DNA from: a virus
Taxonomy: Duplodnaviria; Heunggongvirae; Uroviricota; Caudoviricetes
Strand: one strand, 5' to 3'
DNA: 46,987 nt
Virus record (IMG/VR): IMGVR_UViG_2526164667_000034
Position 1 is the stretch's first letter. The number at the start of each line of letters is the position of its first letter. Below the pieces are notes generated by a model that was not told the origin of the DNA, made no database searches, and worked only from the letters and a program-made list of their open reading frames with translations. Both the position numbers and the translations under genes were made by a program. Below are positions 18,672 through 22,110 of the stretch, in pieces.

Positions 18672-19584
18672 TTAACTCGGCATTAAGTCTGCCGGTGACT
18701 GTGGTGGTGACTGGAATTGCTGTTGTTGTGACTCGGCGACATCTTTCAGAAGGCGTATTGCCTCCATCACTGCTTTGTCATCGATGTTTCTGGCTTGAGC
18801 CAGTTTATAGACAGTGTTTGCCTGACTCTCCATCGCATCCTGCTGGGCAGTAAATGCTTTGATTTGAGTTTGAGCAGTTTCGTTAGTTGCTTTTTGCGCT
18901 TCTGCCTGCGCTGCTACCATTTGCGCCTGAGCGAGAACCATTTCAGGATTTGGCTGGCTTTGTGCTGCCATTTGCGCCTGTTGAACAATCTGCTGCTCTT
19001 TCTCATTGCGTGGTTTTGCAATACCAGATATCAGCAGTTGGTTTCGGTTGTACTCTTTGAAGTCATCAAGGCCTTCGCCATCGATATTGTCCAGAATAAT
19101 ACCCTGAATTGCCGGGCGCATTGGGTCTGTTGGAAGCATAGAGCTAAGGACATTTGTCAGTACAGAAACCGTTGCATCACGTCGTGCTGTGTAGCTTGGT
19201 CCAACATCAACCGTCACATCGTATCGACCGACAGAAAGGTCATTTAACGCAACAACAGCCCCTGTTTGCCTGTCAACAACCTGTGCGCTCAGGACAGCGA
19301 TATCATCACTTCCATCTTCGTTAACGATGCGCACTTCACGCTCTGAACCGTACACTTCACGCGCCATTGACAGCCATACTTCACCAGCGCGTTTAAGACT
19401 TTTCGCCATATTGTCCAGATAGATAAACGAAGCCATATCTGCTCTGTTCATCAAGTTGTTAACCGTTTCCTGAGCAATATTACTTGGCATCTGCTGCATG
19501 GCCTGACTGCCGCCTGTAACCTCCTGAATATCAGCACTGGTTTGCTGTAGTAATGCAGCCAATGCCTGATTCATAACCGCAGGC
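18672..19584 (-). pseudogene. Portal protein, C-terminal fragment (gene interrupted by IS629-like element)
   Basis: Track ORF 18672..19574 aligns to the P22 gp1 C-terminal region. Frame continues in-frame with the N-fragment once IS plus 3-bp duplication are removed. Confidence 0.8.
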
Positions 19585-19638
19585 TGAACCGCCCCGGAAA
19601 TCCTGGAGACTAAACTCCCTGAGAAAGAGGTAAACAGG

Positions 19639-19965
19639 ATGACTAAAAATACTCGTTTTTCCCCCGAAGTCCGTCAGCGGGCGATTCGTATGGTTCTGGA
19701 AAGTCAGGATGAATATGACTCACAGTGGGCGGCAATTTGTTCCATTGCCCCAAAGATTGGCTGTACGCCGGAGACCCTGCGTGTCTGGGTTCGCCAGCAT
19801 GAGCGGGATACCGGGGGCGGTGATGGTGGGCTCACCAGCGCTGAACGTCAGCGTCTGAAAGAGCTGGAACGTGAAAATCGTGAACTGCGCCGCAGTAACG
19901 ATATCCTTCGCCAGGCTTCCGCTTATTTTGCGAAGGCGGAGTTCGACCGCCTCTGGAAAAAATGA
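19639..19965 (+). CDS. IS629-like transposase OrfA
   Basis: 108-aa [36 protein letters not shown]... with HTH and leucine zipper; recalled as IS629/IS1203 OrfA. Confidence 0.85.
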
Positions 19966-20852
19966 TGCCACTGCTGGATAAGCTGCGTGAGCAGTACGGG
20001 GTCGGACCGGTATGCAGCGAACTGCATATTGCCCCGTCAACGTATTACCATTGTCAGCAACAGCGACATCATCCGGATAAACGCAGTGCCCGTGCGCAGC
20101 ACGACGACTGGCTGAAGAGAGAGATACAGCGCGTATACGATGAAAATCATCAGGTGTACGGTGTGCGTAAAGTCTGGCGTCAGTTGTTACGGGAAGGAAT
20201 CAGGGTGGCCAGATGTACAGTGGCACGTCTCATGGCGGTTATGGGACTTGCCGGTGTTCTCCGGGGTAAAAAGGTCCGTACGACCATCAGCCGGAAAGCC
20301 GTTGCCGCAGGCGACCGCGTAAACCGTCAGTTCGTGGCAGAACGACCTGACCAGCTGTGGGTGGCTGATTTTACTTACGTCAGCACATGGCAGGGCTTCG
20401 TCTATGTGGCGTTTATCATTGATGTGTTTGCCGGATACATCGTGGGGTGGCGGGTCTCATCGTCTATGGAAACGACATTCGTGCTGGATGCGCTGGAGCA
20501 GGCGTTGTGGGCCCGTCGTCCGTCTGGCACCATCCATCACAGCGATAAAGGCTCTCAGTATGTGTCACTGGCCTATACGGAGCGACTAAAAGAAGCCGGA
20601 TTACTGGCATCAACAGGGAGTACAGGCGACTCGTATGACAACGCGATGGCTGAGAGCATCAATGGTCTTTACAAAGCGGAGGTAATACACCGTAAGAGCT
20701 GGAAAAACCGTGCAGAAGTGGAACTGGCCACACTAACGTGGGTGGACTGGTATAACAATCGACGATTGCTGGGAAGGCTGGGCCATACTCCTCCGGCAGA
20801 AGCAGAAAAAGCTTATTATGCTTCCATCGGAAACGATGATCTGGCAGCCTGA
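19962..20852 (+). CDS. IS629-like transposase OrfB (DDE integrase domain)
   Basis: 296-aa ORF overlapping orfA (ATGA), typical IS3-family frameshift arrangement. Confidence 0.85.
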
Positions 20853-20893
20853 GTTCACAGATAAAACACTCTCCAGGAACCCGGGGCGGTTCA

Positions 20894-22110
20894 GGCTGTG
20901 TATATCCTGCCGGGGTAGCTCCAGCGATAATGTTGCCAGATTTATCTCTCACTTCGCGCAACGGCAAGAACGCTGGGCGTTTCTTGTTGCGAGCCTCCCA
21001 GTGCTTCTCAAGTCCACGAATTTGCTCCATGCCAACTATAGGGATCTGACCGGGGTCTTGCGCTGCAGTATCAGCCAGCATTGATACCTGAAGGTTATAC
21101 AAACGCTGTGGATCCATTGCTTTTGCAATATGTCCTTCGACACGCTCAATGTCATCAATGAACCAGCGTTTTCCATAAACCGGGATGAGGGGGATATGCT
21201 CACCAGGAATACGTCGAGGTTTCTCAAGGAAACCATCACCATCCACTACGGATACATACACACGACGGCGCTTCACTGAGCGCCTTGCCACTTCCTGAAA
21301 TCCAGCTATTGCCAGTTCATCTTCAATATCTTCAACCTGATCACTGTCGTATGTTGCAATCTCTCCAGTGATTGGATGTCGATAACTGATGACGTCAACA
21401 GACTCTTTACGAACTTCGTAATACTTCGCTATGTAAATAACATCTGCATCAAACCAGTCATATTCCCAACTGGTCATAGACGTTACATCCAGAGAAGCAG
21501 GAGGTTTCTTTCCGTATTCAGCCTCATATTTTTCAGGTGACAACGAATACATGCAGAACGCCCACAACGCGTCAGATTTGTCGTACTTCTTAGCGTCAGG
21601 GTCAAACCACACAGAGCGCGACGGGTCGTATATTGGTTCAATAGCAATACGCTGACGATCGTCCATGGGGTCGTATTCATTGACCAGCATCGACGTCAAA
21701 CGGAAGCAACCGAAACCACCAGTAGCAGCGTCGTCAAATGCATTATCGCAAGCCTCACCGCCATCGGTTTCTTCGTAGTCAGCACGGAACAGACCATTTA
21801 ATTTATTGGCTAACTCTTCGCTTGCCTCTCTGTCACCAGGACGAAACTTAACAGTGATTCTGTTATTGCGGTATTCTGCAATGATGCGGTTAAGTTCAGT
21901 TGCTACCTTATTGATTTCAAACTTAGGATACTTCTCGAACTGCTCATCAAGCTTAGTTCCAGCCGCCGTTGCTCCTTCCCATTGACCTCCGGGGACACGA
22001 GCAAACCTCGTAGCTTCAATGCACTTTTCGCGCACTTCCTGCTGTGGAGAATAGGCGCGGTCAAACCTGAGCATGATCCGCTCATGTTTTTTCTCTAATG
22101 TCTCTGCCAT
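20894..22110 (-). pseudogene. Portal protein, N-terminal fragment (gene interrupted by IS629-like element)
   Basis: Track ORF 20659..22182; start trimmed to MAETLEKKHERIML. The C-terminal 78 residues of the track ORF (PEPPRVPGECF...) are translated IS sequence. Body aligns to P22/Sf6 portal. Confidence 0.8.

Follow-up and report, generated by a model that had tools for sequence, protein, structure and literature searches.

A copy of the insertion sequence (IS) IS629 splits the portal gene of a prophage in the viral record IMGVR_UViG_2526164667_000034, a stretch of 46,987 nucleotides that we refer to, at its full length, as the window. The window comprises a complete Sf6/HK620-like (Lederbergvirus) prophage, bounded by the first codons of an IntS-type integrase and of cscB, and we regard it as almost certain that an active IS629 transposed into the portal gene of this Sf6-like argW prophage, with the very probable loss of portal function. 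The event is of a known kind, the inactivation of a prophage morphogenesis gene by IS629 in IS-rich pathogenic Escherichia coli.

IS629 interrupts a P22-family portal gene

The element occupies positions 19585-20893 on the plus strand (1309 bp, ends TG...CA) and divides a portal gene that is read from the minus strand. At the left junction, ...CATAACCGCAGGC|TGAACCGCCCCGG..., the element begins at 19585; at the right junction, ...CCGGGGCGGTTCA|GGCTGTGTATATCC..., it stops at 20893. The trinucleotide GGC, found on both flanks of the element in the window (Table 1), is single-copy in the empty sites of Sf6 and of E. coli DEC9B. The target reads CAGGCTG, so the terminal TG and CA of the element also occur in the target, and the size of the duplication is set at 3 bp by the known ends of IS629, not by the sequence alone. 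Joining 18672-19584 to 20897-22110 yields a minus-strand open reading frame (ORF) of 2127 nt, 708 codons and a stop, free of internal stops, and if both GGC copies are kept the frame still holds, with one extra codon only. Over the 85 nt compared, the restored junction does not differ from gene 3 of Sf6, which is uninterrupted, and in DEC9B the restored gene is continuous over its whole length.

The restored protein matches the Pfam family P22_portal (PF16510) over residues 14-637, spanning profile positions 2-594 of 594 (E = 6e-179), and aligns with Sf6 gp3 (PDB 7SFS) from 1-708 on 1-708, ungapped across the junction (...AGYTQPAVMNQ...), with 703 of 708 residues identical and 5 substitutions. 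It differs from the DEC9B portal by one substitution (V160I), and P22 gp1 is a remoter homologue (E = 6e-95). The gene order terminase-portal-scaffold-coat is the same as in Sf6. The uninterrupted ORF of a P22-like portal is lacking here, as 1309 bp plus the 3-bp duplication follow codon 405, and the portal gene of the window is a pseudogene of the P22-portal family and not a working member of it.

The inserted element

Compared with the IS629 annotated in phage CP-1639 (AJ304858), the element shows 1 substitution, at 19776, and 1 deleted base in 1310. The deleted base falls in the right inverted repeat, where GGAAACCC has become GGAACCC with one A gone, which is why the element measures 1309 and not 1310 bp. 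Both ends still share their first 13 nt in inverted orientation, followed by a CCTGGAGA block. The transposase genes are oriented antisense to the portal gene and the late operon; on an identical copy, the Prokaryotic Genome Annotation Pipeline (PGAP) annotates them as a joined coding sequence with programmed frameshift, an "IS3-like element IS1203 family transposase", non-pseudo. IS629 and IS1203 are isoforms, and IS629 makes target duplications of 3-4 bp (PMC3271280).

The observation is thus real, and chance resemblance is excluded. An earlier note, made by reading the sequence, had described two halves of one portal flanking an IS629/IS1203-like element and had called for an alignment to P22 gp1 and Sf6 gp3; that alignment, now run, is contiguous without a gap and makes both fragments halves of one P22-family portal, and the comparison with CP-1639 bears out the identity of the element. 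Junction extraction returned exactly the coordinates, TG...CA ends, 1309-bp length and GGC duplication that the note had given, and the 709 codons given for the restored frame are the 708 codons with the stop counted.

As for how the insertion arose, we propose that an Sf6/HK620-like prophage, integrated at argW in what was probably an E. coli of the O26:H11 type (DEC9), received an IS629 copy by transposition into codon 405/406 of its portal gene. The OrfAB transposase, made by -1 frameshifting, would have moved the element by a copy-out/paste-in route, and repair of the staggered target cut would have left the 3-bp GGC duplication.

Mobility of the element and integrity of the junctions

The sequence itself offers nothing that argues against such an event. 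Our conclusion nevertheless has its limits: the insertion rests on a single assembly, its junction occurring in no other record searched; the right inverted repeat is 1 nt shorter than in the 1310-bp reference, a deletion that might suggest a crippled copy; and the loss of portal function is inferred, not measured.

The deletion can be judged from copies of the element elsewhere. A search with its exact right-end 70-mer gave 125 E. coli records, most of them O26:H11-type genomes, strain 11368 among them, and full-length copies of 100% identity are found in three other E. coli genomes, at two other loci. At the first locus, in two strains, the copy lies in a gene for an amino-acid ABC permease, upstream of yhdY, and ATC is duplicated; the second locus is the spacer between ydeP and ydeQ, where CTC is duplicated. 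In 11368 a lambdoid prophage contains a copy of 99.1% identity with the duplication GTC. Since identical copies sit at other loci with duplications of their own, the 1309-bp sub-variant is, on this indirect evidence, able to transpose, and we rejected the idea that the deletion immobilised the portal copy, which looks active in that its sequence is indistinguishable from those of active copies. The six independent IS629-type target duplications that we collected (GGC, GTC, ATC, CTC, GTC and AAC) all end in C, a possible target preference, for which a sample of n=6 is far too small.

Could the insertion be an assembly artefact, a multicopy IS put in the wrong place? IS629 is typically present in several to tens of copies per genome in E. 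coli that makes Shiga toxin (STEC). No genome with the same insertion was found when the element with its 300-nt flanks was sought in 5426 complete E. coli genomes, and the exact junction is absent from GTDB representative genomes and metagenome contigs. Both circumstances would suit a misplaced element. However, the junctions are exact to the IS termini and carry a perfect 3-bp target duplication, the signature of transposition, whereas a misjoin would neither create a duplication nor preserve the reading frame, and the flanks are otherwise colinear with DEC9B; we give an artefact only a negligible chance. The three full-coverage matches that the flanked-insertion search did return in E. coli genomes were rejected as instances of the same event. 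They are IS629 relatives at other positions in the same argW prophage lineage: at portal nt 378 in strain UTAK-12, at portal nt 714 in strain 2011C_4037, and in the scaffold gene in strain 2009C_3996. The copies in UTAK-12 and 2011C_4037, the two that were compared, are 95-96% identical to IS629, and all three IS629-type copies, like that of the window, lie antisense to the late operon.

Relatives of the prophage and order of events

Synteny and similarity identify the prophage as an Sf6/HK620-like element at argW, the tRNA gene itself lying just outside the window, and its virion module is 96-99% identical to those of Sf6, N7 and HK620. E. coli DEC9B (NZ_CP074760, 3731808-3774275) carries the same prophage between tRNA-Arg(argW)/intS and cscB. 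The SNPs (single-nucleotide polymorphisms) that separate it from the window number 2 over the left 26 kb and 5 over the right 18.5 kb, and the large differences are two, the IS629 in the portal gene and an IS100 in a Rha-family gene. This portal is carried by 237 of the 5426 complete E. coli genomes (227 at >=99% identity), none of which has this insertion. A further IS, an IS2 in the tailspike gene, is shared by the window and DEC9B, and IS629 and IS100 are found in the window only; the IS2 therefore came first, followed by IS629 and IS100 in the lineage of the window itself. On these sequence comparisons, the portal hit is recent and strain-specific.

Both SNPs in the left 26 kb (3606 and 21633) are nonsynonymous and fall in IS-broken genes, giving S379R in the tailspike and V160I in the portal. 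This could reflect relaxed constraint or coincidence, to which gene length assigns a probability of ~3%.

The adjacency of int and oac had raised the possibility of a non-integrated or rearranged genome. We rejected it: the attP of Sf6 lies between int and the excisionase-side genes, and both DEC9B and the record of vB_EcoP-611R6 show the same int/oac layout next to argW. The latter record (ON470589.1, 'Escherichia phage vB_EcoP-611R6') is presented as a "complete phage genome" and has host genes at both ends (cscA, cscK and cscB at one, tRNA-Arg and yfdC at the other); it therefore represents a prophage together with its flanks, not the genome as packaged, and calls for caution as a reference.

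Consequences for the portal and the phage

What would be made from the split gene? Reading from the portal start, Pro406 is recreated with the first IS base encountered, and translation would continue into the element as far as a stop at 20659, giving a truncated chimera (Table 1). The 3' fragment has no in-frame ATG, GTG or TTG before Met409 (19572-19574), from which a 300-aa ORF is possible. The alignment with P22 gp1 places the break at about P22 residue 395. The chimera retains the N-terminal part of the core and the trigger loop, KRRR motif included, and lacks all that follows the break, with hammer loop (P22 456-505), crown and C-terminal barrel among the lost regions. In P22, genetics has established that procapsids without portal assemble and cannot package DNA. 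Hammer loop, crown and barrel play a part in contact with the scaffold, in binding of the ejection proteins and in the signal for maturation (PMC13386823, from which we also take the P22 loop coordinates and portal domain functions).

A promoter and terminator scan of 18600-22200 gave nothing above shuffled expectation and no minus-strand terminator-like site in the IS, so that neither polarity on the scaffold and coat genes nor an outward promoter serving the 3' fragment can be predicted from it. Strong polarity on these two genes would not be expected, late transcription being Q-antiterminated.

Judged from sequence, the insertion very probably disabled the portal. No functional dodecameric portal would form, and induction would be predicted to give at most portal-less shells, with no DNA packaging. 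With its tailspike gene split beforehand, the prophage had probably lost the ability to form infectious particles by then, and the portal hit would add a block at an earlier step, DNA packaging.

A reversible block is conceivable, given an intact IS and the IS-excision enhancer (IEE) found in STEC strains. Precise excision of IS629 by IEE would restore the portal and turn the insertion into a switch and not a dead end; the element and its transposase are intact, the 3-bp duplication permits exact in-frame restoration, IEE stimulates the excision of elements of the IS3 family, its gene iee occurs in O26:H11 as in other STEC, and excision of IS600 from lacZ restores function (PMC9397093). However, iee would lie outside the window, there is no evidence of mixed populations, and restoring the portal alone would leave the tailspike split by IS2, so that infectivity would not be regained. 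Excision is better regarded as incidental to IS biology; nothing here points to its use as a switch, and we consider this explanation very improbable beside lasting inactivation by an active IS629.

Insertion sequences in the virion module

Is the virion module of this prophage decaying while its other modules persist, as the earlier note suggested? Its observation of a second, independent IS hit in a morphogenesis gene stands: the tailspike gene is split by the IS2, and removing the element restores an open 708-codon frame. The identical insertion is found in E. coli DEC9B, F2_407_2_2 and 7_33_46A, so it is older than the portal hit. The step from two hits in virion genes to a decaying module goes beyond the evidence. 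The third IS, the IS100, lies in a non-virion gene, at the 5' end of the Rha-family regulator gene, whose neighbours are the lysis genes on one side and the homologue of gene 66 on the other. In DEC9B, whose prophage is nearly identical, PGAP flags three small pseudogenes in the early-left region. All other virion genes are intact and match their counterparts in the viable phage Sf6 in length, exactly or nearly so, the exception in length being a gp20-type injection gene (1416 vs 1296 nt), a difference expected of a mosaic. With the virion module making up ~45% of the phage DNA, we estimate the chance that at least two of three random IS hits fall there at ~0.4; two of three is thus compatible with chance, and decay is only weakly supported. 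The pattern fits the bias of IS629 toward prophages and the known pool of IS-damaged prophages in enterohaemorrhagic E. coli (EHEC): 62% of the IS629 copies in four O157 genomes sit in prophages (PMC3271280), and IS insertions are common in the morphogenesis and packaging genes of EHEC prophages (PMC2669165).

A different account would invoke the host, which might gain by keeping useful prophage genes (O-antigen acetyltransferase, immunity, exclusion) while shedding the cost of virions, making the hits adaptive. Independent IS hits in four other strains of the same lineage speak for it, the three IS629-type insertions described above and an IS600-family element in the portal gene of MBT-5. However, portal or scaffold hits affect at least 4 of the 237 carrier genomes (counted among the best 60 matches inspected), and most of the carriers listed, including O26:H11 strain 11368, keep an intact portal. 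With lysis and replication genes intact, a portal knockout would stop neither induction nor lysis and would offer the host little protection; IS629 is generally biased to prophages, and the tailspike was already lost. Selection by the host is accordingly hard to credit. A broader proposal, that head-assembly genes of the argW lineage are preferred or selected targets of IS3-family elements and that the block, possibly reversible, provides population-level on/off control of particles, is in our view a long shot. Transposition of an active IS629 into one portal gene accounts for what we observe here.

Other features of the prophage

The features located in the window are collected in Table 1, together with the segments compared with DEC9B. 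The P22-type immI module looks intact: a sar antisense RNA (Rfam RF00262, 90.6 bits) lies at 7137-7204 on the plus strand, overlapping the beginning of the antirepressor gene, which occupies 6201-7202 on the minus strand. An O-antigen acyltransferase-type gene (1403-2545, minus strand; Acyl_transf_3, 380 aa) is intact and lies between the tailspike and integrase genes, like oac in Sf6. In a tblastn search for the N antiterminator the C-terminal part alone matches, an ambiguous result, and another arginine-rich ORF is present. The stretch of ~1.07 kb (28929-30000) that separates the Q-type antiterminator gene (30001-30624) from the holin gene (28605-28928) contains no gene annotated in DEC9B and no tRNA, whereas Sf6 has tRNA-Asn and tRNA-Thr in its Q-holin spacer and the spacer of vB_EcoP-611R6 is only ~0.5 kb long.

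Table 1. Positions in the window of the split portal gene, the inserted elements, neighbouring genes and the segments aligned to the DEC9B prophage
Feature	Position	Strand	Remarks
Portal, N-terminal fragment	20894-22110	-	codons 1-405 and first two bases of codon 406; ATG at 22108-22110
Portal, C-terminal fragment	18672-19584	-	last base of codon 405 to codon 708, and stop
Predicted truncated chimera, 483 aa	20659-22110	-	portal residues 1-406 and 77 antisense IS residues (...AGYTQP|EPPRVPGECF...)
GGC target-site duplication, left copy	19582-19584		from junction reading
GGC target-site duplication, right copy	20894-20896		from junction reading
IS629 left terminal inverted repeat (IRL)	19585-19609	+	TGAACCGCCCCGGAAATCCTGGAGA; 25-bp repeats annotated in AJ304858
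IS629 right terminal inverted repeat (IRR)	20870-20893	+	24 nt instead of 25; one base short of the reference
IS629 orfA, 108 aa	19639-19965	+	HTH_Tnp_1 domain
IS629 orfB, 296 aa	19962-20852	+	-1 frame relative to orfA; HTH_21 and rve DDE integrase core
A6 run	19957-19962	+	-1 slip joining orfA and orfB; yields 404-aa OrfAB transposase
ALIL frameshift-stimulating pseudoknot	19920-20036	+	Rfam RF01497, full model length, 121.5 bits (gathering score 50)
Large terminase subunit, intact	22113-23525	-	directly upstream of portal; Pfam Terminase_3; length as Sf6 gene 2
Scaffolding protein, intact	17774-18658	-	directly downstream of portal; Pfam Phage-scaffold; length as Sf6 gene 4
P22-type coat	16491-17762		gene neighbourhood of portal
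IS2 in tailspike gene (gene 2616-6078)	4490-5820		1331 bp; 5-bp duplication CACAG at 4485-4489 and 5821-5825
IS100 (IS21 family; istA 340 aa, istB 260 aa)	25505-27458		1954 bp; 5-bp duplication ACAAC
IntS-type integrase	1-1158		one prophage end
cscB	45740-46987		window end
Segment aligned to DEC9B	1-19586		1 mismatch
Segment aligned to DEC9B	20892-25504		1 mismatch
Segment aligned to DEC9B	27458-29691		0 mismatches
Segment aligned to DEC9B	28464-46987		5 mismatches, no gaps

Significance

The insertion has little significance beyond annotation and strain typing. For annotation, the prophage should be entered as defective, with portal and tailspike as pseudogenes, and the two portal fragments should not be counted as separate genes. 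As a strain-specific marker the insertion is potentially useful, typing by IS629 sites being already in use in O157 and O26 epidemiology. For IS629 biology, the apparent continued mobility of the sub-variant makes a small point about the change in spacing that the inverted repeat tolerates. The acyltransferase gene is cargo of possible benefit to the host, even though the prophage is defective.

Comparison with known systems

The closest structural reference for the interrupted gene is Sf6 gp3 (PDB 7SFS/7SP4/7SPU), whose length (708 aa) and place between the large terminase and scaffold genes the restored ORF shares; unlike its Sf6 counterpart, the gene of the window is physically split after codon 405 and a full-length protein cannot be produced. 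Among integrated relatives, the argW prophage of DEC9B differs from the window by 7 SNPs over ~44.9 kb and has the tailspike::IS2 in common with it, whereas its portal (2127 nt) and Rha-family gene are intact and it has no IS100, the window having gained both IS629 and IS100. O26:H11 strains such as 11368 carry the same prophage at the same argW site, with an intact portal in 11368. The element itself conforms to IS629 (isoforms IS1203 and IS3411; IS3 family), known from Shigella sonnei and from STEC/EHEC E. coli, in its ends, ORFs, slip site, ALIL pseudoknot, 3-bp duplication and location in a prophage, and departs from the reference in measuring 1309 instead of 1310 bp and in occupying an insertion site found nowhere else in the collections searched. 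The nearest precedent for the event as a whole is provided by the Sp prophages of strain Sakai, such as Sp4, where an IS interrupts nu1 (Asadulghani et al. 2009, PMC2669165): there too, an IS sits in one essential packaging or morphogenesis gene of an otherwise well-preserved lambdoid prophage, and the strain background is rich in IS629, like that of the window. The prophage of the window differs from these in belonging to the P22/Sf6-type podoviruses instead of the lambda-like siphoviruses, in its site at argW, and in carrying IS2, IS629 and IS100 together.

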